From UHGV virus genome UHGV-1366603: DNA of 64,000 nt; one strand, 5' to 3'. Source of the DNA: a virus. Both the position numbers and the translations under genes were made by a program. Positions within the stretch are counted from its first letter, which is position 1. Each line of letters opens with the position of its first letter. Positions 3,630-59,158 of this stretch are shown here, piece after piece. The notes below the pieces were generated by a model that had not been told where the DNA came from, searched no databases, and saw nothing but the letters and a program-made list of their open reading frames with translations.

Positions 3630-3631
3630 CA

Positions 3632-11344: not shown

Positions 11345-12193
11345 ATGTCTCTTACGTCAAAACAGAAACTGCTAAAACTCATCAACACTGAAAACAATAT
11401 TAGTCCACCGTTGACTTTCAGTGATGTTGATATCGGAGAACCTACCGGTACTGGGGTTGATACCCAGGTGGTTCTGACCTCTAAACTCAAAGGCGATGAG
11501 TCTACTACTTTAACAGTGACTTACCACCGTCGTAATTTACCTGACTACCTAACCGGCGAGTTGGTATTCGGTAACGACAGTGTGGTAACCGCATCGGATT
11601 TGCTTAATGCGATTAACGCAAAATACAACCTAAATATTTTACCCTCGGATATCGTTGACGCAAAAGTTGAAGGCGAAACCCATCAGCTTACCGCTAACGA
11701 GAAATCTTACGAGTGGTGCGGTGTAGTAACACTTACGCTGCGTGATCCTATTGACCTGACTGAACTGTTACCGGTTACACAATTAGAGAATCTGGTAGAG
11801 TATCCGTCCACGAAGAAAGGTAACGCGGCGGTTTATTCTCACCCGATTGATTTCACCGCAGAAAAAGATTACCTTGACCCGATTACTATCAACGACACCG
11901 TCGACCTGGCTGAGTTAGCCACTAAACTGGCTAACGTCGTTGATGAGAAATGGGTAAGCGTGCCTAAGAACGCGGCTAACAACCTGTTCGGTGCGAGGGT
12001 TATTTACGATGGTCCAACCGCAGGTTACGAAGGCGCAAATACGAAGTTCACACGTGTGTTGGTGCTGACGCTCAGCCCGCTGTGTTCTAACCTGACCGGT
12101 AATCTGTTAATCCACTTTAACGGCACCGATCGTCCGAAGTCGAAGATTGAATTAGCGCAGACTAATCCGGTCTTACCGGGATTCTTAGATTAA
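11345..12193 (+). CDS. Hypothetical protein, member of dispersed NTKVTLTA/Y-R-L family
   Basis: 282-aa ORF; N-terminal SDVDIGEPTG...TTLTVTYHRRNL. Confidence 0.5.
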   Translation: MSLTSKQKLLKLINTENNISPPLTFSDVDIGEPTGTGVDTQVVLTSKLKGDESTTLTVTYHRRNLPDYLTGELVFGNDSVVTASDLLNAINAKYNLNILPSDIVDAKVEGETHQLTANEKSYEWCGVVTLTLRDPIDLTELLPVTQLENLVEYPSTKKGNAAVYSHPIDFTAEKDYLDPITINDTVDLAELATKLANVVDEKWVSVPKNAANNLFGARVIYDGPTAGYEGANTKFTRVLVLTLSPLCSNLTGNLLIHFNGTDRPKSKIELAQTNPVLPGFLD

Positions 12194-12206
12194 GAGGATT
12201 ACAGTA

Positions 12207-12704
12207 ATGGCCAATCAAGAAACTATCTTCGACCTTATTAAAAAGGCTAACCCAGACGCCGAGTTCGACACCACTAAAGTCACGCTGGGTGATCCGGTCG
12301 TAACCACTGGTACTTACAATACCGAAATTACGGTTGCGTCGATTAAGAATCTCGGTTACACTAACAAACAAACGTTCCAGTATAACCGCATTGACGCAGG
12401 TTTGTATTTCCTGAACGTATTACCGAAGCTGTTAGTGGAGTCTGCAACGACTACCGCTGACTTACTGCCCGTCATTAACGAGCAGTACAGCCTAACCCTT
12501 ACAGAAGACGACGTGTGGGTAGAACAGGTTGGTGAGTTACCGTTAGACGGTAGCGCAATCGAACACGGTATTTTCTTCCGTCCTGAATGTTTAACCTGGG
12601 TAGGCGGTTTTACGGTGCGCGTTGCACGTAAACCTGCTGAAGATGTTGAACCTGCGCCGAAAGCAGCTAAAGCACGTACAACTCGTGCACGAAAATCCAA
12701 GTAA
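12207..12704 (+). CDS. Hypothetical protein, same family, with Lys/Arg-rich C-terminal tail
   Basis: 165-aa ORF; TKVTLGDPVV...TFQYNRID; C-terminus PKAAKARTTRARKSK. Confidence 0.5.
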   Translation: MANQETIFDLIKKANPDAEFDTTKVTLGDPVVTTGTYNTEITVASIKNLGYTNKQTFQYNRIDAGLYFLNVLPKLLVESATTTADLLPVINEQYSLTLTEDDVWVEQVGELPLDGSAIEHGIFFRPECLTWVGGFTVRVARKPAEDVEPAPKAAKARTTRARKSK

Positions 12705-12708
12705 GATT

Positions 12709-12746
12709 TGGGTGGGGTAAAACCCACCCAACGTTTTTCTTTTTTG
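12709..12746 (+). terminator. Intrinsic terminator
   Basis: Hairpin tgggtgggg-taaaa-ccccaccca followed by T-run. Confidence 0.7.
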
Positions 12747-12768: not shown

Positions 12769-13359
12769 ATGGCTGAACGTTGGACTAAAGAAGGTATTAT
12801 TGAATCCAAAACGGATTTAGAAGGCGGGTACGTCAACGACCCTGACGATTTAGGTGCAGAAACGAACCACGGTATCACGGTAACGACTGCACGTGAGTAC
12901 GGTTATAAAGGGAAAATGAAAGACCTTACCCGTACTCAAGCATTCGATATCTACGATCGTGGTTGGTGGAAGAAACTCAAACTCGATGAGATTTTCGCTA
13001 TCTCGCCTTTACTGGCTGACAGAATGTTTGATTTCGGGATTAACGCAGGGCGTGCTAACTGTGTGAAATCGCTACAGCGTATTCTCAACGTGTTGAACAA
13101 CGAAGGTAAACTCTACGCGGACATCGATGTTGACGGTGGAATGGGGCCTAAAACGCTGGGTGCGTTGAACGCGTACCTGAAATACCGTAAAGATGAAGGG
13201 CTAAGCATTTTAATCTTTGCGTTAATCTCGCACCAAGTAACTTACTACACGGAAATCTCCGAGAAACGTAAGCGAAACGAGAAATACACCTACGGCTGGT
13301 ACGGCCGCGTGTTCAGAGAAATGGCAGATTATGCGGTAAAAGCGGGGTTAGTAAAATGA
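12769..13359 (+). CDS. Endolysin: GH108-like lysozyme with C-terminal peptidoglycan-binding domain
   Basis: N-terminal EGGYVNDPDDLGAETNHGIT is characteristic of glycoside hydrolase family 108; C-terminal region resembles a PG_binding_3-type domain. Confidence 0.75.
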   Translation: MAERWTKEGIIESKTDLEGGYVNDPDDLGAETNHGITVTTAREYGYKGKMKDLTRTQAFDIYDRGWWKKLKLDEIFAISPLLADRMFDFGINAGRANCVKSLQRILNVLNNEGKLYADIDVDGGMGPKTLGALNAYLKYRKDEGLSILIFALISHQVTYYTEISEKRKRNEKYTYGWYGRVFREMADYAVKAGLVK

Positions 13360-13460
13360 ACTGGTTTGCTAAACTCTTAGCGTTATTGTGGAAAGCGTTA
13401 ACGTCTGGTCGAAAACGTAAAGACGAAAAACGTGGGCAAGAATTCTTCTGGTTTTTGTAA
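13356..13460 (+). CDS. Small ORF (34 aa) with hydrophobic N-terminus and basic C-terminus
   Basis: ATGA overlap with the endolysin stop; MNWFAKLLALLWKALTSGRKRKDEKRGQEFFWFL. Below the ORF-track length cut-off. Confidence 0.3.
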   Translation: MNWFAKLLALLWKALTSGRKRKDEKRGQEFFWFL

Positions 13461-13466
13461 GGAAAG

Positions 13467-14141
13467 GTGTGGGTAATGGAGAAGCTTCAATATAAACGTT
13501 TAGATAATAAGTGGTTTGTATTAACGGAGGATTACCATTATCCGTTTACGTTACGTGAGATTTATCACGACCACGTACACTTAGACCGTGCGGTTTATTT
13601 AACGGGCGTATTACCTGACACGCAACTGTGGTTAACAGCACCGAAAGGGTTCGTAACGGACTTAGCGTCGATACCCGAACACTTACAGGGAATTTTCCAT
13701 CCCGACGGGCCTTGGGCACCGGCTGCGTGTATTCACGACTTGTTATACCAGAAATGCAGTACGGAACGTAGCTACCCTATGACACCCGGTGGTAACGTTT
13801 CTCGAATTATCGATAAAGAGTTCGCTGACTTAACGTTTCTGCGTATTATGCAGTCGTTAGAAATCTCACCGTATATCTGCCAAACGTTTTATAAAGCTGT
13901 TGTAGGTTTCGGTTGGGATGCTTACGTAGACCCTAACGCGAAACCGTCTTATTCCACTAACGACTACCGTACGTTAGATTACAATCGAAACTATTTGTTC
14001 GTTCGCGAGTTTAAGGAACCTGCTATTCCTGACCACGAACGTGTTGATATCACCACAGGTTGTCCCGTTAATGTCAAATACCTGAACATTAAACGGGCTT
14101 TTCTGTCTGGGAGGGAAGATGTTTCATCCAAATCCGAGTAA
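13467..14141 (+). CDS. Hypothetical protein, possibly DUF1353-like
   Basis: Motif GFVTDLASIP...IHDLLYQ resembles DUF1353-type proteins (from memory). Confidence 0.45.
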   Translation: MWVMEKLQYKRLDNKWFVLTEDYHYPFTLREIYHDHVHLDRAVYLTGVLPDTQLWLTAPKGFVTDLASIPEHLQGIFHPDGPWAPAACIHDLLYQKCSTERSYPMTPGGNVSRIIDKEFADLTFLRIMQSLEISPYICQTFYKAVVGFGWDAYVDPNAKPSYSTNDYRTLDYNRNYLFVREFKEPAIPDHERVDITTGCPVNVKYLNIKRAFLSGREDVSSKSE

Positions 14142-14634
14142 TTTTAAAATCAAAGAGTTAGTACCACAATCGTACATCGCCAAATACGGCGATTCTGCAA
14201 TTCGGTTTATGAACCCGTTGTTAATGATTTCGCTACAACAGATTCGTAACCGTTTCGGCAGAATGGTGATTAACTCGTCTGCTGCGCAACAGCGTGGCCT
14301 AAGAACCTTAGACTTTTTCATCAACCAAGAAAAGCCTAAGGGCGGTAACTATAAACAACGTGCGTTACAACTCTACTCTGATTCAGGGAGTCAGCACAAG
14401 TTCGGCAACGCATTTGATGCGACTCTGTTAGATTCAACGGTAAAACAAGTCCACGATTACATCGCCGCCAATCCTGATGAGTTTCCGTTTATTCACTTTA
14501 TTGAATGCGACATCAGTTGGTTACATATCGATGTTCGTAACCAACCGAATATCACGTTCTGGTCACCGAATCGGGGTACTGTGAAAGTCGTGAAACAAAG
14601 CCCTATCGATTGGAGCGCCTTAGTTAAAATCTAA
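14119..14634 (+). CDS. Peptidase M15-like cell wall hydrolase
   Basis: SQHKFGNAFDA and WLHIDV fit the zinc-binding H..D / H motifs of M15 peptidoglycan peptidases. Confidence 0.6.
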   Translation: MFHPNPSNFKIKELVPQSYIAKYGDSAIRFMNPLLMISLQQIRNRFGRMVINSSAAQQRGLRTLDFFINQEKPKGGNYKQRALQLYSDSGSQHKFGNAFDATLLDSTVKQVHDYIAANPDEFPFIHFIECDISWLHIDVRNQPNITFWSPNRGTVKVVKQSPIDWSALVKI

Positions 14635-14725
14635 GCGCGTAATCCGAAACTTAGGGTGATTGTACCTTATTTTGTATAAACCGTCTTAGAACGCGTTCTA
14701 GCGCGTTTTACGGACAAAATAAACC

Positions 14726-14757
14726 TACCCTCCTGCTAAGCAGGAGGGTATTTATTA
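14726..14757. terminator. Bidirectional intrinsic terminator between convergent genes
   Basis: Hairpin taccctcctg-ctaa-gcaggagggta flanked by T-rich sequence on both strands. Confidence 0.65.
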
Positions 14758-15234
14758 TTCTACCGGGTGCAACATAGTGCCGGTATCTGGAATGCTGCCT
14801 TCGTGACATCTGAAGAACGTTACACCTTTACCTTCACCCGTTTTGTAGTTGACGGTAGAATACGCAAACGTTGGGGTTTTCGACAGTAACCCGTTTACAC
14901 GGTAATAGCGCTCACCGGTAACGACGTTTAAGTTACCGTCCACCTTACCTAACAGGTCTTTATAAAGTTGCGGAGATTCAATTTTACCTTCGTCCCATGT
15001 AGCGACCCAATTCGCCCCTGTATCCATGACTAACACCGAAAGGGGCATCAGTTTTAGACTAGACGGTACGGGTTTAAAATCGTCGAATTCTTGAGAAGCA
15101 CCTGTACAGGTGTAAATGACCATATCGTGTTGGTCAACAGGTACGGTGGAGAACTGACCTTCTGCGTTCGGCTGAATAGCACAACTTGCCAATGTCATTA
15201 CAAAAGCAACGACCACGAGAATGCGTTTTAGCAT
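14755..15234 (-). CDS. Putative lipoprotein
   Basis: Signal peptide MLKRILVVVAFVMTLASC with lipobox L-A-S-C; 159 aa; opposite orientation to neighbours. Confidence 0.6.
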   Translation of the reverse strand: MLKRILVVVAFVMTLASCAIQPNAEGQFSTVPVDQHDMVIYTCTGASQEFDDFKPVPSSLKLMPLSVLVMDTGANWVATWDEGKIESPQLYKDLLGKVDGNLNVVTGERYYRVNGLLSKTPTFAYSTVNYKTGEGKGVTFFRCHEGSIPDTGTMLHPVE

Positions 15235-15372
15235 AATCTCACCCTTATTAAAATTAAGAAAAATTATTTTTTCAGGTTAGCGCCTACTGCCAACCGTCAT
15301 ATCTATATTTTAGTAAATGTCTAAAATAACTTTCTTATGCAATCCACCCCTACCACTTACGAGGTAAAAACG

Positions 15373-15909
15373 ATGGCTAAAGCCTTCAATCAGCAGCTTA
15401 TCGAAGCTGTAAAAGCCAAAAACCCTGAAACTGCTTCTAATCTAACCGTAGAAGACGTTGACTTTGGTGCCGTAGAAGCACATAGCGGAAACGGTGGCCG
15501 TAACACCAAAGTTACGCTGACTGCAAAAGAAGAAAGTGCTAACTTTACTGGCAGTAAAGAATTCCACTACACTCGTCTGGCTTCTCAAGATCTGATCGGT
15601 GCCAAAGCTTACGAACAAGCCGGTAGCCTCGATCTGGAAAACTCTGTCATCGTAACCAAACTCAACGAAGAAATGGTTACTAAAGGTTATACCGATGACG
15701 CTTTCGCTGAAGGCGAACTGACCATTGAGAAAACTGAAGGGGATAGCGGCGCTAAAGTTTACACCGTTAAAGTAAACGATGCACACATTAAATTCCTGGC
15801 TGGTACTATTGCCGTCTTCACTTATTCCAACCCAGCTCCTGAGAAGGTAGCACTGAGCGGTCTGGAAGGTGAACTTGATGGCTTCACTGCACCGGGTGTC
15901 GGTGGCTAA
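15373..15909 (+). CDS. Hypothetical protein, NTKVTLTA family, paralog of 15980..16510
   Basis: Start at ATG 15373 (RBS gaggtaaaaacg). Shares NTKVTLTA...(F)HYxRL and C-terminal GELDGFTA with the next gene. Confidence 0.55.
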   Translation: MAKAFNQQLIEAVKAKNPETASNLTVEDVDFGAVEAHSGNGGRNTKVTLTAKEESANFTGSKEFHYTRLASQDLIGAKAYEQAGSLDLENSVIVTKLNEEMVTKGYTDDAFAEGELTIEKTEGDSGAKVYTVKVNDAHIKFLAGTIAVFTYSNPAPEKVALSGLEGELDGFTAPGVGG

Positions 15910-15917
15910 GTAAGCGA

Positions 15918-15950
15918 AATCGGGGGGGGGTGACCTCCCCCGATATTTCT
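15918..15950 (+). terminator. Intrinsic terminator
   Basis: G/C-rich hairpin atcggggg...cccccgat followed by T-rich tract. Confidence 0.65.
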
Positions 15951-15979
15951 CTATCTCGTTTTATTAAGGACCTAAGATA

Positions 15980-16510
15980 ATGGCCGCTACTAACCAGATG
16001 ATGTTGGTCGCGCTTTATAATGCTGCTAACACTGAGCTACCGCATCAGATTACTGATAAAGAAGTGTCCTTTGGTCTCCCTACTGCGCTGGAAGGCGAAA
16101 GTAAGAATACCAAAGTTACCATGACTGCACTACCGGGTTCTGAGAATTTCAAAGGCGAAATCGAACTGCATTACGATCGTCTGGAGCCGGGTGTTGTAGG
16201 ACGGATTGAACTAACTGACGATCTGTCTCGCTGGGTTCAAGAAAATGAACTCCGCGCTTGGTTACAATATTACATCAACAAAGTAAAACCTGACGACGCT
16301 ATCGCACCAGGCGACGTTGTGTACAACACCGAAGACCAGAAAGACGAACATGAAAACGTCACTCTGCGTACCGTGACGTGCACCGTTACCGAAAAGAACC
16401 TCCGTTATAAACCGGGTGTAATGGCAACTTTCGTAATTACACCGAAGGTTGTCGATAATCGTATTGACCTGGCCACCACCAACGGTGAGTTGGACGGTTT
16501 TACTGCTTAA
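15980..16510 (+). CDS. Hypothetical protein, NTKVTLTA family
   Basis: 176-aa ORF; NTKVTMTALPGSENFKGEIELHYDRL; ends GELDGFTA. Confidence 0.55.
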   Translation: MAATNQMMLVALYNAANTELPHQITDKEVSFGLPTALEGESKNTKVTMTALPGSENFKGEIELHYDRLEPGVVGRIELTDDLSRWVQENELRAWLQYYINKVKPDDAIAPGDVVYNTEDQKDEHENVTLRTVTCTVTEKNLRYKPGVMATFVITPKVVDNRIDLATTNGELDGFTA

Positions 16511-16589: not shown

Positions 16590-17261
16590 TTACAGCCCTT
16601 GCTCTAATGCAAACGCTTTAATTGAATCGTAATCACGGGCTTCGGCCCAAGCTCTGACTTCTTTTTTCTGTTCCGTCATTGCCTGATGCAGTTGCTGGTC
16701 GCGTTGCACAATAGCACCCAACAGTGTTTTGCACTGCTCTACCGTAAACGGTTCGATACGGGTGTTGTTGGCCGTTAACCAGTACGCTGGCGCGGTTTCT
16801 GATTGAATATAACGACTCAGCGCTACCTGTGACTTCTCATCTGCCTGGAAAGTGAAATCACCCACCTGAATCTCGGCATAGCGCGCATCCTGATAACGGA
16901 ATTCCAATGCGCTCAGGATTTTCTGAACATCGGTAAAGATATAGCGTACGGTGGAACGTAACCCCGTACGAATCTCTTCCAAGTCAATTCCCAACGTGTC
17001 GTTAACAAAGTCTTTCGCTTTCTGTAGCGTAAAACGAGCTTCGATTTCAGACATGTCGTAGTTACGCATTTGTTCCAACGCTTCACGATCAGACATCCCA
17101 TCAATCAATTTATAGTGCAGTAACGCGCAAAAACCCGTACGACCATGATCTTCGCTACCGATTTTTTCCATATAGTTACCATGGCGGTCAATCGGTAAAT
17201 CGTGCTCAAAATAACGACGACGGATTTCTTCTTTCGTTAAGCCTTCACCAGTAGCAGACAT
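16590..17261 (-). CDS. Hypothetical protein, last gene of radical SAM cassette
   Basis: 223-aa ORF overlapping the upstream gene by 25 nt. Confidence 0.55.
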   Translation of the reverse strand: MSATGEGLTKEEIRRRYFEHDLPIDRHGNYMEKIGSEDHGRTGFCALLHYKLIDGMSDREALEQMRNYDMSEIEARFTLQKAKDFVNDTLGIDLEEIRTGLRSTVRYIFTDVQKILSALEFRYQDARYAEIQVGDFTFQADEKSQVALSRYIQSETAPAYWLTANNTRIEPFTVEQCKTLLGAIVQRDQQLHQAMTEQKKEVRAWAEARDYDSIKAFALEQGL

Positions 17262-17809
17262 TCATCGTCTCCTTTAATCAATCCTAATTCGATTAACAGT
17301 TCAAAATCGATATGGCGGAATCTTGTATCGAAATCCGATTCCCAATCGATGCGGATACCCTGGCACTCTTCTGCCGTTAGCTCGGGAAAAATTACGGTAT
17401 TAAATTTCTCACGCTCATCGTAAAACCCATCAATCGGTGAGTTCGGGTTACGCGTTGCGAAAATAGTAATACCGGGGAAAGATAATGCTAACACAGTGAT
17501 AGACTCTGCGCTGGGTTCGCTTAAAGAGCGGCGTAGAAACGCAATTTTGTGGCGTGGGAAGTCCAATACGCGTTCTTCAAACCCTGGATTACGTTTTTCG
17601 ATTTCCGCTACCGACAGGTCAGTAAGTTCGGTGCAATACATTGGGATGATTACAGTCACGCCGTGGCGAATCATTAAACGTTTTACGTCATCAGTAAAAT
17701 CTTCACCGTTAATCATCACGTAACAACCGAATAGCTTACTGTTCTCCAGAAACTTATCCAGAAGTCGAATTCTACGCTTCGTAATATTGTTGATCAGAAT
17801 TGGTTTCAT
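17237..17809 (-). CDS. Hypothetical protein in radical SAM cassette
   Basis: 190-aa ORF overlapping the radical SAM gene 3' end. Confidence 0.5.
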   Translation of the reverse strand: MKPILINNITKRRIRLLDKFLENSKLFGCYVMINGEDFTDDVKRLMIRHGVTVIIPMYCTELTDLSVAEIEKRNPGFEERVLDFPRHKIAFLRRSLSEPSAESITVLALSFPGITIFATRNPNSPIDGFYDEREKFNTVIFPELTAEECQGIRIDWESDFDTRFRHIDFELLIELGLIKGDDECLLLVKA

Positions 17810-19094
17810 CTTTGGCTTCTCTTAATAATTTTTCCTTTTGGGCGCGTTCACGAACACAGCGTGGGCAATAACACATACTCGTGTCGTGGAACGCTTTTGC
17901 TGACGTCGTACCCATCTTCTGTTTCCAGTATTCCGCCACCATCAGTTTCGCTGTCGTCCAGCCGCACTGACGTCGCTCAGCGTGATACGCTTTACGGTCT
18001 TCCAGTGTCCCTTCACCGTTTTCGTAAGAAGCCGCAGCGCAGCTACCACAAGCGTGCTTCATCGGACAACCTAAACAAGTCTCTGGATAGTTGGTATATT
18101 GTGTTTGAATCTCTTCTAACAATTTACCGTTGTCCAGACTGACGAATTCCCGACCTACCAACTCAAATACCGCAGAACGCGACGTTACGGTTGACATAAA
18201 GCGATTGCAACCGAAGATCTTACGATCAAATCCTAAACACGTCATGTGCGTTAATGTCCCACAGAACGGACGTAAACGTTCTGGGTTCAACCGTACTGTG
18301 TCATTATAAAGTAATTGGTCACGCCAGTTCGGTTCCCAAATCGTATCGAAATCCAACCCTTCTGGAATGATATGCGATAAGATATTACGTGGGTTGGTGT
18401 GTAATCCTTTCTCGACCCAATAATCAATCACATCCATCATCTGCAATGCAATTGAAGTAGCCATGCCGCGTGGCATAATGTCTTCGAAGGTTACGTTGCC
18501 GGAGATAGTTCCGCCACCAGTAATATCAATTAATGACTTCATTCCGGCAGCATAGTACGGTAACGTTTCTAACGTAAAGGTCGCCTTTACGCCAAGCTCT
18601 GCAATGCCAACCTCTTTTAAGTAGTTATAGCCTCGTACTGCGGCTTCGTAAGAACCCTGGCGCGTCGTTGTAAAGATACGATAACGGTCATGGGACTCAG
18701 GTAAGCCGTCAATTGAAACCCCAACCGAAAGTTTGTCTTTCCAACGCTCTACGATCTCACGGTTCAACGGGCGATCTAACAACGTCCCGTTTGTGGAAAT
18801 ACTAAACATAAACGGCCGATTATGTTCTTTACACAACTGCTCGGCGGTTTCAAATGCAGCCAGCAGCAACTTAGGCTGCATGAACGGTTCACCACCGATA
18901 ATGTCGATAATAACTTCAACATTCGGTTCGTTTTTATCACGTTCAAAACAGGCGTGCAAGAAATCAACAATATCTGCCGCTTTGTTGTTACGCGGGTACT
19001 TACGTTCGTAACAATATTCGCAGTCCAGGTTACACGAAAGATTCGTTACAATCTGATACGTTAGCTGCTTAGGGAATTCATTTACTTGACTCAT
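17772..19094 (-). CDS. Radical SAM enzyme with C-terminal SPASM-like Cys-rich domain
   Basis: CNLDCEYC (CxxxCxxC) near N-terminus; IGGEPF SAM-binding motif; C-terminal CLGCPMKHACGSC plus additional Cys (CGTLTHMTC, CYCPRC) fit an auxiliary Fe-S SPASM-type domain. Confidence 0.8.
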   Translation of the reverse strand: MSQVNEFPKQLTYQIVTNLSCNLDCEYCYERKYPRNNKAADIVDFLHACFERDKNEPNVEVIIDIIGGEPFMQPKLLLAAFETAEQLCKEHNRPFMFSISTNGTLLDRPLNREIVERWKDKLSVGVSIDGLPESHDRYRIFTTTRQGSYEAAVRGYNYLKEVGIAELGVKATFTLETLPYYAAGMKSLIDITGGGTISGNVTFEDIMPRGMATSIALQMMDVIDYWVEKGLHTNPRNILSHIIPEGLDFDTIWEPNWRDQLLYNDTVRLNPERLRPFCGTLTHMTCLGFDRKIFGCNRFMSTVTSRSAVFELVGREFVSLDNGKLLEEIQTQYTNYPETCLGCPMKHACGSCAAASYENGEGTLEDRKAYHAERRQCGWTTAKLMVAEYWKQKMGTTSAKAFHDTSMCYCPRCVRERAQKEKLLREAKDETNSDQQYYEA

Positions 19095-20001
19095 TTGCCG
19101 CCCCTCTATTACGCCCTGCCATCACTACGCGACGAATATATTCGTAAGCCTCTACACCGATAGAGAAGGCCAGTTGGTTACACCCGGATTCCAGTACGTT
19201 AGGTGCATTCTGGAGCTGGTGCTCACCACCGTCTGCATTAATCCAGAGACTTTCGCTGCAAACGTTACAGCCTTCTTCAAACACTTTACTTACCGTAAAA
19301 CCACATTCACGTCTGTTTACTACATTCAGTCGTTCAATGTTGTCCTGAACCTGATAGTAGCCGTAAATAAAGTTCATGACGTGGTCAGGTGATAACGGTT
19401 TTGGCATTTTCGCATCTAAGAGTAACGTCATTGCTCGGAAACCGTAATGGTAAATCGCGCTATGCAGCTGAATAATATCTTCATGCCAACGTTTATCCCC
19501 CAAACGGTCCCGTGTCAAGACACCCCAAGTCTGGACATTATCCAGCTCGTAGATCGTTTCCAGTGCTTCGTAACAGCCTTCGTCAATAAAGCGCATAAAT
19601 GGACGCTCAGACGACTTAAACCCATCGATGCTAACGTAGACATTGTCAAACTGTTTTAGCAACGGGAGATGCGATTTACGCATCTTTAAGCCATTGGTAT
19701 ACAACTGGTGTTTGAGTTCTGGACGAATCACTTTTAATTCGTCAACAAACGCCTCAATTTTACGGGTTGCCAGTAATGGCTCACCACCCGTCCACTGAAT
19801 TTCGGTAATGGTTGGATTAGCTTCCAACGCTTCCAAAATTCGCTCACGTTGAAACTCTCGCGGAGAATCTTCACGATTCATGTAATAGGCTCCACCGCAG
19901 AAGCTACAATCCAGGTTACACTTGGACGTAGCGACTACGGACAATACGGTGGGTTTATCGTATAAACGATTCGATAACCTTGGTTCTGCATTGGTTGTCA
20001 T
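19078..20001 (-). CDS. Radical SAM enzyme (second, shorter)
   Basis: CNLDCSFCGG (CxxxCxxC) and TGGEPLL motifs; C-terminal Cys cluster CGFTV...CNVCSES...SGCNQ. Confidence 0.8.
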   Translation of the reverse strand: MTTNAEPRLSNRLYDKPTVLSVVATSKCNLDCSFCGGAYYMNREDSPREFQRERILEALEANPTITEIQWTGGEPLLATRKIEAFVDELKVIRPELKHQLYTNGLKMRKSHLPLLKQFDNVYVSIDGFKSSERPFMRFIDEGCYEALETIYELDNVQTWGVLTRDRLGDKRWHEDIIQLHSAIYHYGFRAMTLLLDAKMPKPLSPDHVMNFIYGYYQVQDNIERLNVVNRRECGFTVSKVFEEGCNVCSESLWINADGGEHQLQNAPNVLESGCNQLAFSIGVEAYEYIRRVVMAGRNRGAANESSK

Positions 20002-23499: not shown

Positions 23500-26400
23500 T
23501 TAAGATGTAAACATAAGATTGAACTGGAGTTTGTCGATATCGCGAGTTTCTGCCGGATTCACGGCATCGTACGCGGTCGCTACGTAAACGGTTAGCGTGC
23601 CGTTAGCGTAAGACGATTTCACCGGTGGGTTAGTTCCGGTCTGACCATCTCGCACAATGAGTGTAGGTTCACTTGGGAGATTATCAAACTGACCCTTGAC
23701 CGCTTTATACACCAAACCAGATTGCGCAGACAGTTCACTGTCCGTAAAGACAAAGAACGGTGTGTCGATATCTGCCTGTTTAATCGTGGTACCGGTCTCG
23801 ACGTCAATCAACTGTACCGCCCCAAACTTCGTACGATAACTTTCATACTCGTTCTTCGGAATAACGAACGTGACGTGAACGCGAACCTCCTCGGCAGGTT
23901 TAAACCCAGCGTGCTCTTTTTCCAGGTACTGGTTGGCGGTTAACGTTACCGTTTGTTCAGTCATCGTACCACCGGCCTGGTTTATTGCATACCGAGCTTC
24001 AACAATACCGGTTGGTGCAGCAAGTCGCAGTTTCAAAGCACGATTCGCCGTTCCTGGATTACCTGGCACCTGAACGCGCAAACTCAATGCTAGGTAAGCA
24101 TACGTTCCGGTAGTCGGTTTCGTATACGCACCAATCCATTTCATGTTCGCAGACGCTGCCTGCGTGTTTTCAGAAGCAGTGGCTGTCGCAATGTTGGCGG
24201 CTACCGCTTTCTGCCAGAATTGGTCAGCGCAGTTCTCATACGCTACCCTGGCCACGCTCTTATAACCCGAGTAAGTTTCCTGAATTGGTAACTTAGGACG
24301 CGTCGTAATACCAGACAGTGAACCCCATTTTTGACCGTCAACATACCCTTCACCTTTCGTCGCAGACGCCGTAGGTGCTTTAACGGGTTTGTTAACCAGC
24401 GTTAATAGAGGACCGGTCTTTCTGTCAAACGCTGCTGCTACATCGTGTTGGTCGATAATTGCCGCGTGGTCTTCCAGCTCTTTCACACGACCCAAACGTT
24501 TTACTTTGTCGATACTGATATCGGTAATACGGCTGGAATCGGTGGTTACCGTCCCGACGAACAGTCTTGTTGAAGTATCAGCTAACTGCTCCAAACCGAT
24601 ACGGTATTGCGCAGTAGAACCTGACACCTCAGCGTGCACGTAGAACGTTTGGTTAGCGTGATTGGACGGGAACTCGCTGCTTAAATCCACAGACCACGTT
24701 GGAAGTGTGTAACTGCTGCTACCGAAGTCTAACTTGACTTCTTCTGTCAAATACAGAATCCAGCCTTCTGCTGTCTCCACACCGGCAATAATAACAGCCT
24801 GACCTCCGGTTGAGAACGTCGTGTCGTTAACGAACTCTGCGGCTGTATACGCGTTACCTGAACAGAAAACACGGTCAGCTTTAGAGTAAATCAACGCCAT
24901 CTTGTCCCAATTACCGGCACCCATATAGCACCCAGATTCTGGGTTATGTGCAGGGGCCATCTGTCGTAACTGTGACTTACCAGGAACGCGAGACCAACCT
25001 GAACCTGGGTCGTAGGTATACTTCGCGGCGTAACCTAGTGCATTTAAGTCCCCGATATTTCGGATAGTTAACGTATAAGGTAGCCAAATACCGAAGTTTA
25101 CACCGTCGGCAGAAGCAAAAATTGGCTGACCGACACGTCGTGTTTTATTACCCGCTTCTTCCCTCAGAGACTGATAACTTAAACCATAATCGAGGTCTAA
25201 GAACCAGTCCACCAACTTAAAGGTGGCTGAGTTGAAACGTAAGTAGCCGTTCTCTTTAGATGGACTCACCATGAAGTAATAGATGTCAAGAATTCGACGT
25301 CCGTTACTTGAGGTTTTCATGCACGAAACTTGCAACAAGTCAAATTCGCACACGGTGTTGATACCCAACATCCAAAGAGCAAACAATGCATTACCGGTTT
25401 GATGGGCAGCGCTAATACGTTCATTCGCGTAACCATTTGCTTGACCAGATGGCGCACCGTCAACGATCATCCGAATCATTTTCTGGCGATCGGCTTCTTC
25501 TAGCGTTAAGCGTTCGGAAGACAATGCGAAATTACCGTAGATGTTACGATACGGGAACGTTTCTGCTTTGGTCAAATACCAACCGTTTAACTGCCCGTGA
25601 CGCTCCTCAGGAGTCATGCACGCAGCCATACAGCTAAGCTGCTCGTAAAGCGTTGCATCGACTTCACGACGGTTGTTGTTCGGACCGTATCCGCTATAAC
25701 CCGGAACATCGTAAGGTTTGTTCGGATCAACTTCTACTTCGATGGTGTAACGGTTACGTGGGTTAGACAACCACACTTTGTTCGAACCACCAATTCCGAC
25801 AGGATGGGAAAGACCGATGGTATAAATAGAACCGCGACCTTTATCCCAGGTAAACGTTCCTTCGCCCGAGGTGTTGTTTGGGTTATCGTAACGCAGATAG
25901 TCGAAAAGCTCTTTGCCTTGTGTTCCTTTAATAGAAACGTTCGTCATCTGGTCCGCATCGTTAATCTGCCAACAGGAAAGCATCATTCCTGTACCGTTGG
26001 GTTTAGCATACGTCGCGAAACAACGGTTGTTTGCCTGGCCACCACCCCACTTACGACTGGTTTCTACAGTTGAGCCATCCGCGAACGAGAGTGTAGTAGC
26101 ATCAGCCTTGATGGGGAAGCGTTCGCGGCCTTCTAACGTAACCTTGCCCGTCAACGTATCGATTGTGAAACTTGTTGCCCATTGACGGAAATTAATCGTC
26201 GAACCGTCTGCCGCCGCAAACCACACAGTGGGCACATGGTTCACACGAATCACGCTATCGCGTACAGCACACGCGTGGTTACATTCTGGACCGTGAACAA
26301 AGTTACGTCCGATCGTCCATTTAGCACGACCCTCCGGTGTGAGATATGTAAAGAATTGACCAGTCTGCGACTCTTCGGTCTTCTGACCAATTCGTAAACA

Positions 26401-32962: not shown

Positions 32963-32972
32963 AAAATTCTCC

Positions 32973-48002: not shown

Positions 48003-50507
48003 ATGTTAAAAGTTGAACGTATTGTACTTAAAGGATTTACCGGAATGGGATTACACGAAATCGAAACCTTCGATTTTACTATCCATTCCCCGACCACCAT
48101 TATCCTCGGTGGTAACGGGTGCGGTAAGACCAGCTTACTGTCCGTGTTTCTACCTATCGCACCTTCGAAATCCGAATTCCGTGACGGGGGTTCTTACACC
48201 AACATCTGTTTGGTTAACGACCATCGTTACAAATTTAAGGTTGCACGTAAAGGCAACTCACTGGTTTGCGATATCGAGAACCTGACGACGGGTACCAAAA
48301 TCGTCGAACAAGGTAATGCGAAAGTGTATAACTCTCGTGTAGAAGAAATCACGGGCATTACAAAAGAGATTAAAGAGTTACTGAACGGAGAAGTGCTTTT
48401 AACGGATGCAGGAACGGAGCTGCGTCGTAAGTGGTTCTACCGTTTAAGTACGTCAGACTTAACTTACGCGTTAGGTTTTTATCAACGTTTACGAAAAAAC
48501 CTGACGATGCTAAACGGTGGTATTGAAATCACCAGCCGTAAAATTGCAGAGTTGCGTACCCGCGTAATTGATAACGAGGAAGAACGTCAGCAGTTAGCAA
48601 CACGGTTAAAAGCATTAGAAGTAGATTTACGTGAACTCAACAAACAGATTGAACAACTGCCTGGTCTGAATCGTGACGTTACGGTGGCAACTATTCAATC
48701 GCTATTGCTTAAAATCGAAGCACCGATTAATGCTATCTTGGAACACCGTGGCGGATTACCTACGGAAGAACAGGTAGAGGAAGCACGACGGATTGAAGCC
48801 ACTGCCCGTGAAGCGGTGGTCTCTGCTGAAACAGAACTATCCATGCTAAACAAAGATTTGTCTTTGTTGATGGACGAGTCCACTCGCCAAGATTACCTGA
48901 TGCGGAATCACGAGGGGTTAAAAAACACGGTTGCGAAACTGCGCGAGTTATTAAAGCAGTGGGACACTGAGCATCTTTTCCCTGAACTGTTTGCGGAGAC
49001 CGTTAACATCGACCAGCTTAAAGCAGCGACGGATGCGCGTGTCTGGGGACAACGTTTAGGAACAACGCTGGATGCTATTAAATCAACGGAACGGTTGAAC
49101 GTACTGGAAGAGAAACTGTTGACCTTAGACCAAAACTCATCTGGGTTGCGTGACCGGTTACAACGCGTTGAAAACGTATTGCAGAACCTCAACCACGAAC
49201 GGAATCACTATTTGGAAACTGCCGAGGTTGATTGTCCGCAGTGTCAATTTAAATTCCGTCCGGGTGTCCGTCGATCGCTGCCTGAATTGGAAGAAGCCAT
49301 TCGTGGTCAGATGGAGCAACGTAATACGTTACAGACTCAACTTGATTCCGTATTGCGAGACCGTACGGAATTAGAGTCAGACGTTAATTACATGCGTCAA
49401 GTACGGGAAATTGTTTTAACATACTCGAAAGACCCGGTATTGAGCTTGTTCTTTAAACGACTCCAGGAGCGGAATGTCTTTACGGATAACCGTAGTCAGT
49501 TTGGTAGTTTGTGCGCAGAGTTTGATCGTGAACTTTATTCTGCAATTGAGTACCACGAAACGAAACACCGTTTCGCTAAAGCGGAAAAAGAGTGGGAAAA
49601 TGCAGTTGCAGCGGTAGGTAACGTTGACGGTGCACTACAGCAGAAAATTGCCTTCCAGCAGGAACGTTTGGGTAAGGCAACAGAAACGCTCTCAGAGCGC
49701 CGTAGAGAGCACGCAGTTGCTAATGATACCTTTTGTTATCTAAACGAACTTAAAGCCACTGTAGACAATTTTAATGCGGTTTTTGAGCGTTTAGAGAACG
49801 ATGTTAAGGTAACATTAACCAACACGGTGGTCGAAACGTTATTAAACGCCCGAGAAAACAAGTTGGATGCGTTCACCACAGCACGGGAACGGTACCGTCA
49901 GATGGAAAACGAACTCAACCAACTTACTGCGTTAGAAAAGGAGTTATCAGATTTACAAGCGCAGCAATTCAATAACAAGCTGATGATTCAAGCGTTCTCA
50001 CCTGAGAAAGGGGTATTACGCAAATACTTCTACAACGCTATCGTGAGAATCACGGAATTGATGACGCGGTATATCGAACAAGTCTGGACCTACCCTATGC
50101 GGGTCATGCCGTGCGACTTAACCGACGGTGACTTAGACTACACGTTCCCAGTGCAGTTGAAAACCCATCCTGAGCCGGTACCTGACGTGCGGAAAGGGTC
50201 GAAAGCGCAGCGAGCCATCTTTAATTTGATGTTTCGTTTAACCGCTTACAAAGCCCTGAAACTTCATCAGTATCCGCTACTGTTGGATGAACCGTCAGAA
50301 GGGATGGATGAGGAACACCGAAATAACCTCGTCGGGTTTATTAAAACCCTGGCGAATTCCGGTGAGTTCTCTCAGTTACTGGTGGTATCTCACGAAGCAG
50401 AAATTCATTCAAAACTTAACGAAGCCGCATACTGTGTTATTGAACCTGAAGGCGTAACACTGCCTGCGGTATACAACGAGGGAGTAAAAATTGTCTACGC
50501 AAACTGA
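48003..50507 (+). CDS. SbcC/Rad50-like SMC-family ATPase
   Basis: Start trimmed to ATG 48003 (RBS ggaggtgg). Walker A GGNGCGKTS; long central coiled coil with CPQC zinc-hook-like motif; C-terminal LLLDEPSEGMDEEH (Walker B) and VVSHE. Confidence 0.7.
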   Translation: MLKVERIVLKGFTGMGLHEIETFDFTIHSPTTIILGGNGCGKTSLLSVFLPIAPSKSEFRDGGSYTNICLVNDHRYKFKVARKGNSLVCDIENLTTGTKIVEQGNAKVYNSRVEEITGITKEIKELLNGEVLLTDAGTELRRKWFYRLSTSDLTYALGFYQRLRKNLTMLNGGIEITSRKIAELRTRVIDNEEERQQLATRLKALEVDLRELNKQIEQLPGLNRDVTVATIQSLLLKIEAPINAILEHRGGLPTEEQVEEARRIEATAREAVVSAETELSMLNKDLSLLMDESTRQDYLMRNHEGLKNTVAKLRELLKQWDTEHLFPELFAETVNIDQLKAATDARVWGQRLGTTLDAIKSTERLNVLEEKLLTLDQNSSGLRDRLQRVENVLQNLNHERNHYLETAEVDCPQCQFKFRPGVRRSLPELEEAIRGQMEQRNTLQTQLDSVLRDRTELESDVNYMRQVREIVLTYSKDPVLSLFFKRLQERNVFTDNRSQFGSLCAEFDRELYSAIEYHETKHRFAKAEKEWENAVAAVGNVDGALQQKIAFQQERLGKATETLSERRREHAVANDTFCYLNELKATVDNFNAVFERLENDVKVTLTNTVVETLLNARENKLDAFTTARERYRQMENELNQLTALEKELSDLQAQQFNNKLMIQAFSPEKGVLRKYFYNAIVRITELMTRYIEQVWTYPMRVMPCDLTDGDLDYTFPVQLKTHPEPVPDVRKGSKAQRAIFNLMFRLTAYKALKLHQYPLLLDEPSEGMDEEHRNNLVGFIKTLANSGEFSQLLVVSHEAEIHSKLNEAAYCVIEPEGVTLPAVYNEGVKIVYAN

Positions 50508-50691
50508 TTGGTGGCGTCAGTTACTAAGCGTTTTAGGGTTTAGCGTCATGGTGCTGGTTGCCATTCTGTACGTGCTATTTTGTATAACGGCGATTTTATG
50601 GGTGGTCTTAGCGTACGCGATTAGACTCGCCTGGGGTTCAATTTGGCACCAACGCGAATGTGAGTGGCGGTGTGTTGGAGGGAAGTCATGA
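50491..50691 (+). CDS. Small membrane protein
   Basis: TTG start with RBS ggag; hydrophobic stretch LLSVLGFSVMVLVAILYVLFCITAILWVVLAYAI. Confidence 0.4.
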   Translation: MSTQTDWWRQLLSVLGFSVMVLVAILYVLFCITAILWVVLAYAIRLAWGSIWHQRECEWRCVGGKS

Positions 50692-52695: not shown

Positions 52696-52795
52696 ATATT
52701 ATCATTAGGGCACACAACAAAGGAGTTCCAGCTGTCCGCGCCGTGATTTCGTTCTACGGAACACGGAAATGTATAAATCCAACTGGAGAACTAGT

Positions 52796-53482
52796 ATGTT
52801 TCGTATTTTCTTTCTTTTACTGGTAACACTTTTCGCGTTTAACGCATACGCATCCAAATCCGCACCCAGTGCCAAACACCATCGTGAATTCGAAATGATT
52901 CAAGACCGTTTCGAACGTGTAAAACCGTTGATTGTGGAAATCTCCCGAAAGCAGGGCGTCGATCCTAAGTTGATGACCACGCTAATCTATCGGGAATCGC
53001 GGTTTAATCCGAAGGCGTATAATCGAACGTCTAAAGCGCACAGTCTGGTTCAGATGCTACCGAGCACAAAGCGTAATTTGCTAAAACTCTACGGTGCCGA
53101 AATCGGACTTAGTCGTAACGCGGATTTGTATAATCCTCGTAATGCGGTGCTATTGGCTTCCGTCTACGTTAAACATTTAGAAAAGGGGTTGACTAAACGA
53201 CTCAAACGCAAGCCCACTATTGCAGAAATTGCATTGGCTTATCACTGGGGTGAAAGTGGTGCACACGCCAGGATTAAAAGCAAGTCTCGGGCAGCACAAC
53301 GAGAAATGGCGAGCTTTATGAAAGATGCAACGTTCTACAGTGCGAAAATCGACAAGCCTGTAGCATCTCGTCAGCTTGCGTTTGCGAAGAAACCAGAACG
53401 CCAGATTCAGTTAGCGGAAGTTAACCGAATTTGGGATACGATAAACACCAGTTTTCCATTTAAACAAGGAGTCACCCTTTGA
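52796..53482 (+). CDS. Lytic transglycosylase (SLT domain) with signal peptide
   Basis: Start at ATG 52796 (RBS ggaga). Signal peptide MFRIFFLLLVTLFAFNAYA; catalytic-region pattern LIYRESRFNPKAYN...AHSLVQMLPST...AYHWGE typical of SLT-type transglycosylases. Confidence 0.7.
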   Translation: MFRIFFLLLVTLFAFNAYASKSAPSAKHHREFEMIQDRFERVKPLIVEISRKQGVDPKLMTTLIYRESRFNPKAYNRTSKAHSLVQMLPSTKRNLLKLYGAEIGLSRNADLYNPRNAVLLASVYVKHLEKGLTKRLKRKPTIAEIALAYHWGESGAHARIKSKSRAAQREMASFMKDATFYSAKIDKPVASRQLAFAKKPERQIQLAEVNRIWDTINTSFPFKQGVTL

Positions 53483-54051: not shown

Positions 54052-54531
54052 ATGTTGAAGTTTATCTGGCGTTACCCAACCCGCTTTTGGTTCGTGGTAT
54101 TAGAGGTAATCACCGTTTTACTGTTAGTGACGTTCGTAAACGCCTCTACGAAACAAATGGTGATTTTCTGTGTATTCGTGGCTATACCGCTGTGGGTGTT
54201 TGCAAAGATTATTAAGTTTTACATGATAAGCTGGGCGAACTACACCTGTCCATTTAAACCCAGAGAAATCATGAACTGGTTGATGTATATCGAAGACCGT
54301 TTACCCGCTCAGTCTAAAACGTTAGGTTGGCAATCGATGTTGGATATTGCGCTAGAAACAAACGCAAAATTCCCTGGGTCAAAGAATCCTTATTTGCTGC
54401 TGGCTGTTATTGTTGCCCAGCAGAAACGTGCAGGCGAACGTTGGTTACCGAAAGAAGCGAAAGAGTATATTCGTAAACATCCGAAGGCTTTCTATTCCGT
54501 AGGTCAATGGCGTAACCTCCCACTCTTTTAA
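54052..54531 (+). CDS. Hypothetical membrane protein
   Basis: Two hydrophobic segments (FWFVVLEVITVLLLVTFV; MVIFCVFVAIPLWVFAKII); RBS aaaggag. Confidence 0.5.
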   Translation: MLKFIWRYPTRFWFVVLEVITVLLLVTFVNASTKQMVIFCVFVAIPLWVFAKIIKFYMISWANYTCPFKPREIMNWLMYIEDRLPAQSKTLGWQSMLDIALETNAKFPGSKNPYLLLAVIVAQQKRAGERWLPKEAKEYIRKHPKAFYSVGQWRNLPLF

Positions 54532-58195: not shown

Positions 58196-58699
58196 ATGGG
58201 TTCATTTCTTAAAGTGCTTCCGTTCTTCATTCAGATGTTGATGGAAGCATTTAAACCAGGAGAAGGAGAAAACGTATCAAGAGCAAACAAGATAATGACT
58301 TTAATCATCACGGTCTTGTTATCCTATTCGACTTTCGTCTCCTATGCGTACGTAGTGCAGTTTCACAAGCTCGTTACAGTACAATCTCATGATCAATACA
58401 TGTCGCAATCTTACCAAGAGATGAAGCAAGATCGTGACAAACTGAAAGATGATAATGGTAGATTATACGACAAGCTCTTTATTTGCCTCGGCCAGAAACC
58501 GCCATATGAAAGCGGGTACAGCACGGTAAAAGAAGACAACTCTACCAAAGATTTAACACCTAAGAAACCAGAAACTCCTGTTAGCCCAGCTTCAACACCA
58601 GAACAACGCAAAGAAGCTTCGGCGCGACCTGTTGGTAGTCAAAACGCTAACAGTTTCCGTCAGGAGATCATAAAGACGTTATCCTCACCTAAGGAGTAA
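58196..58699 (+). CDS. Membrane-anchored protein with coiled coil and Pro-rich tail
   Basis: RBS gaggtg; hydrophobic segment IMTLIITVLLSYSTFVSYAYVV, then charged heptad-like region. Confidence 0.5.
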   Translation: MGSFLKVLPFFIQMLMEAFKPGEGENVSRANKIMTLIITVLLSYSTFVSYAYVVQFHKLVTVQSHDQYMSQSYQEMKQDRDKLKDDNGRLYDKLFICLGQKPPYESGYSTVKEDNSTKDLTPKKPETPVSPASTPEQRKEASARPVGSQNANSFRQEIIKTLSSPKE

Positions 58700-58702: not shown

Positions 58703-59158
58703 ATGAAATTGCTGTTATTCATCATGATTTTGTGCGTGGGTTTGGTGAGTAATAGCTATGGAGAACCCGGTAAACGGCCATCCTATACTGCGTTACAACC
58801 TCCGCCAGCGCCGCCTATCATGCTAAATTGGAAGATTGATAAAGACGCGATGCGGGAATATGTTGCGGATGTGAATACATACGCTTATTACGTTTATCTC
58901 TACACACGAAACTTAAATCAACAAGCAGTCAAGCGCGGGTGGAATCCACCGATGTTAGCGCCTATCTGCGAACGGTTTGAAATTCCTAAATTACATTCCG
59001 TTCCAGAGAAGATGTTATTAGACGACAAAGCGTTAACGCCACAAGAAATCAGTCGCGATTTATCACGTAAACTGAATTCGTTGTTGTGGAATTATCGCTC
59101 TGACCGGCAAGCTTTATTAGACGCCTACGATCAGTATCTGACAACGTGTTTGAACTGA
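58703..59158 (+). CDS. Secreted protein with Pro-rich N-terminal mature region
   Basis: Signal peptide MKLLLFIMILCVGLVSNSYG; mature start EPGKRPSYTALQPPPAPP. Confidence 0.5.
   Translation: MKLLLFIMILCVGLVSNSYGEPGKRPSYTALQPPPAPPIMLNWKIDKDAMREYVADVNTYAYYVYLYTRNLNQQAVKRGWNPPMLAPICERFEIPKLHSVPEKMLLDDKALTPQEISRDLSRKLNSLLWNYRSDRQALLDAYDQYLTTCLN

Follow-up and report, generated by a model that had tools for sequence, protein, structure and literature searches.

What does a giant phage do with a phospholipase-like protein encoded between two peptidoglycan hydrolases, and how would these enzymes reach their targets when no holin is encoded beside them? The question is raised by positions 12,769 to 15,234 of a 64,000-nucleotide stretch of UHGV virus genome UHGV-1366603 (the whole stretch is referred to as the window). 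A first-pass annotation had described five open reading frames (ORFs) there: a GH108-type endolysin with a peptidoglycan-binding domain, a 34-residue amphipathic ORF overlapping its stop codon, a DUF1353-like gene, an M15-like peptidase and a convergent lipoprotein. All five are present, with the coordinates and strands that had been given, and the statement that no multi-transmembrane holin is visible at the locus was borne out by a hydrophobicity scan, in which the sole transmembrane-like segment is the signal peptide of the lipoprotein. The DUF1353 gene, however, had been used as a mere spacer between the two hydrolases, and we find it to be the most informative gene of the locus, as its product is a homolog of the phospholipase A2 (PLA2) TtaP. 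Our preferred interpretation, which on balance we think probable, is that muramidase, membrane-active mini-peptide, TtaP-like PLA2 and M15 peptidase constitute an endolysin operon that acts together with spanins encoded elsewhere and a holin as a dispersed lysis system; the suggestion in the annotation of an unusual lysis strategy is thus plausible.

On sequence comparison the window is a distant relative of the SPN3US-like jumbo phages. Distant blastn and tblastn searches gave identities of ~55-69% to jumbo phages of two kinds, those of Erwinia and the SPN3US-like ones (Seoulvirus), a megablast search of the region against phages gave no match, and proteins 95-99% identical to those of the window were found only in contigs (~110-227 kb) of Salmonella and Proteus assemblies. 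The gene order of SPN3US matches exactly, with gp156 (GH108), gp157 (DUF1353), gp158 (M15-like), gp159 (lipoprotein) and gp160 (a DUF7941 head protein paralog) in succession. The features discussed below are listed in Table 1.

Table 1. Features of the locus and of other candidate lysis genes in the 64,000-nucleotide window (., no strand assigned).
Coordinates	Strand	Feature	Remarks
12708..12731	.	Intrinsic-terminator-like hairpin	9-bp stem and T run, just 5' of the GH108 gene; left edge of the transcription unit
12769..13359	+	Predicted GH108 + PG_binding_3 N-acetylmuramidase, TtsA/N4 gp61 type	196 aa; SPN3US gp156 counterpart
13356..13460	+	Cationic amphipathic mini-gene, "NWF...RKRK" type	34 aa, net charge +5; ATGA overlap with the GH108 stop
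13476..14141 (ORF from GTG 13467)	+	DUF1353 protein, putative TtaP-like PLA2	SPN3US gp157 counterpart
14119..14634	+	M15/LAS-type zinc peptidase, putative peptidoglycan peptidase	171 aa, no signal peptide; SPN3US gp158 counterpart
14726..14750	.	Bidirectional intrinsic terminator	11-bp stem with 7 GC pairs, T runs on both strands; convergent gap
14755..15234	-	Outer-membrane-type lipoprotein, orphan family	159 aa; SPN3US gp159 counterpart
50491..50691	+	Membrane protein, candidate only	66 aa, ~40 contiguous hydrophobic residues, charged C-terminus; holin-like in form
52769..53482	+	SLT lytic transglycosylase	Signal peptide (...FNAYA|SK); Pfam SLT E 4.4e-14; SPN3US gp198 homolog
54052..54531	+	Protein with two N-terminal transmembrane domains, candidate only	159 aa; two genes 3' of the SLT gene; holin-like in form
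58196..58699	+	Putative i-spanin	CR5_183 homolog, E 7e-17; transmembrane domain 33-51, helical region, Pro-rich tail, one conserved Cys
58703..59158	+	Putative o-spanin	CR5_184 homolog, E 3e-19

The DUF1353 domain (PF07087) was recognized above its Pfam threshold (E 1.2e-15, 57.3 bits vs 22.5), and the aligned homologs match it without exception (27/27). Translation probably begins at the ATG at 13476: an AAGG ribosome-binding site lies 5' of this codon, and the resulting length agrees with that of a near-identical homolog of 221 residues (P0048). TtaP is a DUF1353 protein of 125 residues, encoded beside ttsA in the typhoid toxin islet, and is a PLA2 (JBC 2024, PMC11525133); its catalytic residues are H70 and D85, D71 is also important, and its distant relatives include the secreted PLA2s of group XIV 1LWB and 4AUP (PMC11525133). 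A contig classed as viral that turned up in the census of DUF1353 neighbors described below, L050 (IMGVR_UViG_2681813052_000004), carries a typhoid-toxin-type islet at 1227-4179, with genes for a CdtB-like protein, a 125-residue TtaP-like protein (H70/D71/D85), a convergent and apparently N-terminally truncated GH108 protein, and a PltA-like protein. The window protein matches the 125-residue L050 protein in BLASTP (E 3.6e-14, 36% identity over 98 residues), and in the alignment made by way of it H70, D71 and D85 of TtaP map onto H87, D88 and D118, the predicted catalytic residues of the window protein (H90/D91/D121 if counted from GTG 13467).

These three residues are included in a pattern (G-F-x-T-D..S-x-P, H-D..Y and a downstream Asp) that is invariant in an alignment of jumbo phage DUF1353 proteins (A3) and in one of very diverse DUF1353 proteins (A4). 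The top PDB match of the predicted model is a fungal PLA2, and the helical catalytic core of group XIV-like PLA2s is found in the window protein. PDB searches by sequence, with the single sequence and with a profile, gave no significant match, and a Pfam scan of the DUF1353 homologs up to E 10 detected no PLA2 family. From the alignments and the predicted fold we regard the window protein as a TtaP homolog and a putative PLA2 with its H/D/D residues intact, sn-2 hydrolysis having been measured for TtaP alone.

The enzyme encoded upstream belongs, by family, to the GH108 endolysin type, and muramidase activity and a role in lysis are predicted for it. Searches with hidden Markov models placed Glyco_hydro_108 (PF05838; E 3.6e-21, 75.9 bits vs a cut-off of 21.2) and a C-terminal PG_binding_3 domain (PF09374; E 3.3e-17) above their Pfam thresholds, so that here, as for DUF1353, the domain calls of the first-pass annotation hold. 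Its PHROG class is endolysin, which is also the usual annotation of its GH108 homologs in 547 phage records, and the nearest NCBIfam model is "holin-associated N-acetylmuramidase" (73.5 bits, below the equivalog cut-off of 240). Among solved relatives the best match is TtsA, the muramidase required for typhoid toxin export (crystal structure 6V40 in the PDB; E 4.8e-44 over 174 residues); 6V3Z is its homolog Sen1395. L-E18-G-G-Y of the window protein aligns with R-E-G-G-Y of 6V40, which identifies Glu18 as the catalytic residue, the corresponding residue of TtsA being E14 (PMC6996933). Two neighboring window proteins have as relatives TtsA and TtaP, which are themselves encoded side by side. 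The muramidase has no signal peptide and should, as a consequence, need a membrane lesion to gain access to the cell wall.

The second hydrolase was accepted as M15 at the family level, although the window protein itself falls short of the Pfam threshold for Peptidase_M15_3 (PF08291; E 0.036, 14.6 bits vs 23.2). What sustains the "M15-like" call is that 8 of 19 homologs do reach PF08291 (best E 6.8e-08) and that the zinc-site signature, S91-x-H93-x2-G96-x-A98-x-D100 ... W134-x-H136-x-D138-V-R, is invariant in all 19; in addition, four of the 19 match Peptidase_M15_4 (PF13539), one homolog is annotated "putative peptidase M15A", and the window protein matches the endolysin family PHROG 894 (phrog_894) with E 3.5e-27. 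Searches of the PDB by single sequence and by profile gave no significant match for this protein, and nothing could be learned from the genes around a distant M15 homolog in Vibrio. With SPN3US gp158 the M15 peptidase shares 79% identity, and the adjoining GH108, DUF1353 and lipoprotein products are 55-63% identical to their SPN3US counterparts, which suggests either a stronger constraint on the M15 gene or its more recent exchange.

Is the 34-residue ORF at the end of the muramidase gene a gene at all? Orthologs of ~35 residues lie 3' of the GH108 gene in SPLA3/SPN3US, STsAS, pEa_SNUABM_29 and Stratton (Seoulvirus and Erskinevirus), that of Stratton having already been annotated as gp173, and the differences among the copies of these relatives are densest at codon position 3 and fewest at position 2 (for example 7/1/13 at positions 1/2/3). 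Such coding-type substitutions indicate a real gene and not a chance ORF. The window copy is more diverged and has kept the NWF start, the amphipathic helix and the cluster of Arg and Lys residues; the helix, formed by residues 1-18, has a hydrophobic moment (muH) of 0.45, contains two Lys and falls below the threshold for a transmembrane segment. The ATGA stop/start overlap suggests that translation of the mini-gene is coupled to that of the GH108 gene.

In relatives the gap between the GH108 and DUF1353 genes holds up to three conserved mini-ORFs (L002 5576-5866; L007 3576-3842; L008 3582-3839; L010 4611-4727; L011 4594-4707) of three types: the amphipathic "NWF..RRKR" type, a second amphipathic type, "DSGFFKLLRAIF", and a single-transmembrane peptide of 29-38 residues, which is present in Seoulvirus, Machina and Wellington instead of or besides another mini-ORF. 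The window holds just the NWF type. With several types of mini-ORF at one place, the gap between muramidase and DUF1353 appears to be a hotspot of small membrane-active peptides, and among products encoded next to the enzymes these peptides would be the sole candidates for a holin- or disruptin-like role. TtsA acts only with an outer-membrane perturbant, such as cationic peptides, and this need is paralleled by the presence of a cationic mini-gene here.

The four plus-strand genes look like one operon, because terminator-like hairpins bracket them (Table 1), and the lipoprotein gene looks like a separate, convergent single-gene unit. The right-hand hairpin is the stronger of the two and terminates both the plus-strand operon and the lipoprotein gene. 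The scan that identified these hairpins found eight terminators where 3.1 were expected; a scan for sigma-70 promoters performed at the level of chance (five found vs 4.8 expected) and was not used. Within the operon the M15-like gene overlaps the DUF1353 gene by 23 nt.

How consistently are these genes kept together? Their arrangement is syntenic in at least eight jumbo phage lineages and has been relocated as a block, which is beyond chance. Local tblastn searches over eight related loci showed that all four genes are present in the Seoulvirus phages SPN3US, STsAS and pEa_SNUABM_29, as in the window. Stratton (Erskinevirus), Machina (Machinavirus) and Wellington (Wellingtonvirus) have GH108, DUF1353 and lipoprotein genes and no M15 gene, while CR5 and Phobos (Derbicusvirus) have the DUF1353 and M15 genes and neither of the other two. 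The Machina and Wellington blocks have been turned round with respect to the radical-SAM genes beside them and are otherwise intact. DUF1353 is thus found in every lineage of the clade that was examined, each time beside at least one peptidoglycan hydrolase. The first-pass annotation had proposed that two distinct hydrolases might divide lysis and virion-associated entry between them. Both hydrolases are indeed present, but such a division is weakened by the existence of lineages with GH108 only, with M15 only or with both, always beside DUF1353; GH108 and M15 look instead like interchangeable or complementary lysins.

Lysis genes also adjoin DUF1353 in three unrelated phages. The gene order in Fusobacterium phage phiRTG5 is M15_4 endolysin, holin-like gene, DUF1353 and Phage_holin_4_1; in Pseudomonas phage Bjorn, a lysozyme gene and DUF1353 overlap at the end of the former, and in Vibrio phage Bakedbeans DUF1353 comes after a GTA-holin-like gene. 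In a census of the neighbors of DUF1353 in viral contigs (23 loci after de-replication), lysis genes lay within two genes of DUF1353 at five loci by seed search and at ~7-8 of the 23 when Pfam M15_3, M15_2 and Amidase_3 were included.

A putative spanin pair is found 43 kb from the operon. CR5_183 and CR5_184, to which its members are homologous, are curated as a separated i-/o-spanin pair (SIS/SOS) in the spanin census of Kongari et al. The two window genes are co-directional, are separated by a 3-nt gap and have the same flanking genes as their homologs, and the Cys positions are kept; the o-spanin lipobox is degenerate in the window (M-I-L-C11 vs L-T-G-C in SPN3US and CR5). An exported second endolysin homolog is encoded some way 5' of the spanins: the SLT protein, which matches gp144, the endolysin of phiKZ, in its catalytic domain (tblastn E 6.7e-08) and whose homolog in SPN3US, gp198, was originally annotated "putative endolysin". 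The SLT gene, a 169-residue gene that overlaps the stop of the SLT gene with its own start, and the gene for the 159-residue protein with two transmembrane domains together (52769-54531) may form a second lysis locus. The ORF for the other membrane protein of holin-like form, that of 66 residues, overlaps the end of an SbcC/SMC-like gene and is syntenic with SPN3US_0187. For neither of these two membrane proteins did Pfam, PHROG or NCBIfam return a holin call, and tblastn with phiKZ holin gp142, regulator gp143 and the phiKZ spanins gave nothing significant in the window. A canonical, contiguous holin-endolysin-spanin cassette was rejected for the locus itself, which encodes no transmembrane protein save for the lipoprotein signal and lies 43 kb from the spanins. 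The alternative that such a cassette exists elsewhere in the genome holds only by half: spanins and an exported endolysin homolog were found, but they are not contiguous, and no holin was recognized.

If the operon is indeed one component of a dispersed lysis system, its action may be envisaged as follows. Muramidase, phospholipase and peptidase, all three without a signal peptide, would build up in the cytoplasm until the inner membrane is breached by a putative holin or, conceivably, by the mini-peptide. The muramidase would then cleave the glycan strands and the peptidase the peptide stems, while the phospholipase would turn envelope phospholipids into lysophospholipids and so destabilize the membranes, and the spanin pair would finish disrupting the outer membrane. 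The timing of expression, the enzymatic activities, the membrane targets and the dependence on a holin are all postulates of this scheme.

Several observations weigh against a dispersed lysis system of this kind. No holin was recognized by Pfam, PHROGs or NCBIfam in the whole 64-kb window, and the release of the enzymes is thereby left unexplained, as is, from other work, the biological role of TtaP itself. The GH108 protein is possibly not the main lysin, given the presence of an exported SLT homolog of phiKZ gp144. Lysis genes are also not the only recurrent neighbors of DUF1353, since tail fibre genes adjoin it at many loci, and the enrichment of lysis genes in the census is modest (P ~0.006-0.17, depending on the counts and on the null used, which is rough), so that the census is supportive and not decisive. 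We found no infection-time expression data for SPN3US gp156-159 in the literature, and SPN3US gp157 has been detected in virions, where it is assigned to the head as a low-abundance protein (4 peptides, 9 spectra).

The detection of gp157 keeps a role for the phospholipase at entry in play, and leads to an alternative that we consider unlikely and yet worth serious attention, namely that the DUF1353 phospholipase, and perhaps the M15 peptidase with it, is packaged in the virion and acts at infection, easing the passage of DNA and ejected proteins through wall and membranes, leaving GH108 alone for lysis. It gains from the absence of gp157 from some ejection-protein and vRNAP mutants, from the sporadic occurrence of gp158 in particles and its absence from tailless heads, from the position of several DUF1353 loci of other phages after tail fibre genes, and from the location of the module within an array of head protein paralog genes. 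In SPN3US, gp155 and gp160 are virion proteins. The spectral counts of gp157 are, however, very low, and gp158 was seen as traces only, which the SPN3US authors regarded as non-specifically associated, denying it true virion status. In the text-form virion proteome tables we found no rows for SPN3US gp156, gp159, gp198, gp204 or gp205. That lysis proteins can acquire a structural label is illustrated by phiKZ gp142 and gp143 (L015 1216-2227), which are "virion structural protein" in RefSeq despite their experimental roles as holin and regulator, an example of the way in which traces in virion mass spectrometry pass into annotation, and trace detection in virions is accordingly weak evidence. 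DUF1353 moreover shares an operon, with a probable translational link, with a non-virion muramidase, and in phiRTG5 it lies between endolysin and holin. Could the operon, conversely, belong to lysis and yet be dispensable? It may be accessory or redundant, serving for instance against particular cell-wall chemotypes, in stationary-phase hosts or in the degradation of debris to free progeny, with the exported SLT protein, the nearby membrane proteins and the spanins performing lysis proper. The homology of the SLT protein to a verified endolysin, the original annotation of its SPN3US homolog and its own export signal speak for this, as do the variable composition of the module (GH108 is lost in CR5 and Phobos, M15 in three genera) and the specialization of TtsA for L,D-crosslinked peptidoglycan. 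We judge it improbable nonetheless, as every lineage examined keeps DUF1353 and at least one hydrolase, many phages have a GH108 protein of this type as their sole endolysin, and it is not obvious that a transglycosylase exported by Sec, with a signal that is strongly hydrophobic and looks cleavable, would be a regulated endolysin.

It could also be argued that the cluster has no functional unity, being a mixture of structural and lytic genes in which DUF1353 is a non-enzymatic tail (fibre) assembly chaperone. The database label is indeed "tail assembly chaperone", both in PHROG 1158 (E 2e-59) and in RefSeq, a gene for DUF4376, a domain common in tail fibre proteins, is nearby, and tail fibre genes lie 5' of DUF1353 in several viral contigs. 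Yet we found no experimental support for the label in the literature, the invariant residues coincide exactly with the catalytic H/D/D of an enzyme whose PLA2 activity has been measured, the best match by fold is to a PLA2, and an islet devoid of tail genes, that of typhoid toxin, encodes a DUF1353 protein. On these grounds a chaperone was rejected as very improbable, and the label is probably wrong.

The remaining alternative concerns the convergent lipoprotein, which the first-pass annotation had thought might be a spanin-like component or a superinfection-exclusion protein. Its basic description was confirmed: 159 residues, on the minus strand, with the lipobox LASC. The lipobox, L-A-S-C18, is invariant across 13 homologs, with Ala or Val at +2 (Ala in the window), and C43 and C143 are invariant as well. 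Could it be the o-spanin or u-spanin of the cluster? What commends this idea is that the lipobox is conserved, that its +2 residue is one for sorting to the outer membrane, and that lysis enzymes are encoded beside it. We hold it to be scarcely credible, however, as there is no upstream or overlapping i-spanin gene to partner it, the gene is monocistronic, has a terminator of its own and sits on the opposite strand, between M15 and a DUF7941 head paralog, and the protein has no C-terminal transmembrane domain, nor any hydrophobic segment beyond residues 2-20, which disposes of a u-spanin. Furthermore, the pair homologous to the curated CR5 spanins is encoded elsewhere in the window, and CR5 and Phobos have those spanins without having the lipoprotein. 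The predicted model (pLDDT 79.6) is a small, closed, globular beta-barrel domain of ~130 residues with an internal, disulfide-bonded Cys pair; its structural neighbors are generic only, and BFVD gives orthologs only. The family comprises 14 proteins in an exhaustive profile search of 1.84 billion representatives. It co-occurs with GH108 in six of six lineages and is absent from CR5 and Phobos, and from this co-occurrence we conjecture that it is an accessory protein of the periplasm with a role linked to the muramidase, for instance an inhibitor or guard against premature or exogenous muramidase, or else a superinfection-exclusion factor.

Some features of the surrounding window deserve mention. 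The module splits an array of DUF7941 head protein paralogs (SPN3US paralog family B) into two parts, at 11345-12704 and 15337-16510, and is flanked clade-wide by a DUF4376 gene, a 190-residue gene and two radical-SAM genes (16590-20001, minus strand). Three successive giant genes on the minus strand at 23500-37295 (1727, 1394 and 1440 residues) are possibly counterparts of the baseplate/tail fibre paralog family C of SPN3US. At 44495-46698, five tandem plus-strand genes (153, 130, 160, 136 and 129 residues), each with an N-terminal signal peptide, form an array of small secreted proteins.

What would a lysis-linked phospholipase imply? Databases already contain these genes, and for one DUF1353 protein, TtaP, activity as a PLA2 has been published. 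In the literature available to us we found no description of a recurrent DUF1353 phospholipase beside endolysins in phage lysis modules, nor of a derivation of ttsA-ttaP from a phage muramidase-phospholipase module. We suggest, tentatively and as something that may well prove wrong, that DUF1353 PLA2s are an unrecognized class of phage envelope-disruption proteins co-inherited with endolysins and that ttsA-ttaP is a domesticated copy of such a module. A bolder variant, compatible with the SPN3US virion data, would have the DUF1353 enzyme also ejected from the capsid and acting on the lipid vesicle around the incoming genome of nucleus-forming jumbo phages. Models of Gram-negative lysis comprise holins, endolysins, spanins and, rarely, disruptins, to which an endolysin-linked phospholipase, if real, would add a lipid-degrading step; it would also correct a misleading chaperone label that has spread over phage DUF1353 records. 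It suggests a testable hypothesis for the presence of TtaP beside TtsA in typhoid toxin export, that both enzymes act together on the envelope. For lysis by SPN3US-like jumbo phages, our analysis locates two or three candidate lysins and a pair of likely spanins and marks where a holin is expected but missing, and the amber-mutant system of SPN3US makes the prediction directly testable on gp156-gp159.

The components of the proposed dispersed lysis system may be compared with known systems. N4-like phages and many others have GH108 N-acetylmuramidase endolysins with the domains, the EGGY motif and the lack of a signal peptide seen in the window muramidase; they are usually annotated beside holins, whereas the window gene has no adjoining holin or spanin. 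In phiRTG5, DUF1353 is flanked by an M15-clan peptidoglycan peptidase, as in the window, and by small membrane proteins, but this small, integrase-annotated phage of an unrelated host has a recognizable holin and neither GH108 nor the lipoprotein. The pairing of a peptidoglycan hydrolase with a lipid esterase that attacks an outer lipid layer at lysis is known from LysA and LysB of mycobacteriophages. The concept is alike, but LysB, a cutinase-like esterase of mycolylarabinogalactan, has no relationship to DUF1353 and serves against hosts with a mycomembrane in place of a Gram-negative outer membrane. Virulent phages also make small exported or lipid-anchored envelope protectors for superinfection exclusion or immunity, such as Llp of T5 and Sp of T4, and the window lipoprotein resembles this class in being small, exported, separately transcribed and found together with a muramidase; searches by sequence and by fold gave no match, and its function is conjectural.

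Of phages for which lysis has been dissected, phiKZ belongs to the same broad group, the Chimalliviridae-type jumbo myoviruses, and has the same classes of spanin pair and endolysin as the window. Its gp141, gp141.1, gp142, gp143 and gp144 are i-spanin, o-spanin, class III holin, regulator and endolysin, respectively, and are contiguous, and necessary and sufficient for lysis (Manohar et al. 2026). The window components are, in contrast, dispersed over ~46 kb, the gp144 homolog has a signal peptide in place of the peptidoglycan-binding domain of gp144, and the GH108-PLA2-M15 operon is an addition absent from phiKZ. The putative role of the 34-residue peptide has a parallel in the "disruptin" gp28 of phiKT, which is likewise small, cationic and amphipathic, has its gene among those for lysis and is proposed to disrupt the outer membrane (bioRxiv 10.1101/515445). 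The two peptides have no sequence relationship, and phiKT is a phage without spanins, whereas the window phage has them.

The closest parallel is the typhoid toxin islet, in which TtsA and TtaP represent the same two families side by side as in the window, with no signal peptides in either pair. The settings differ. In the window the two genes are co-directional in an operon with the mini-peptide and the M15 peptidase, while ttsA and ttaP are convergent and co-expressed with the toxin genes, and the window DUF1353 protein has 221 residues, with N- and C-terminal extensions, against 125 in TtaP. The outcome differs as well, the islet serving non-lytic export of a toxin where the phage presumably lyses the cell.

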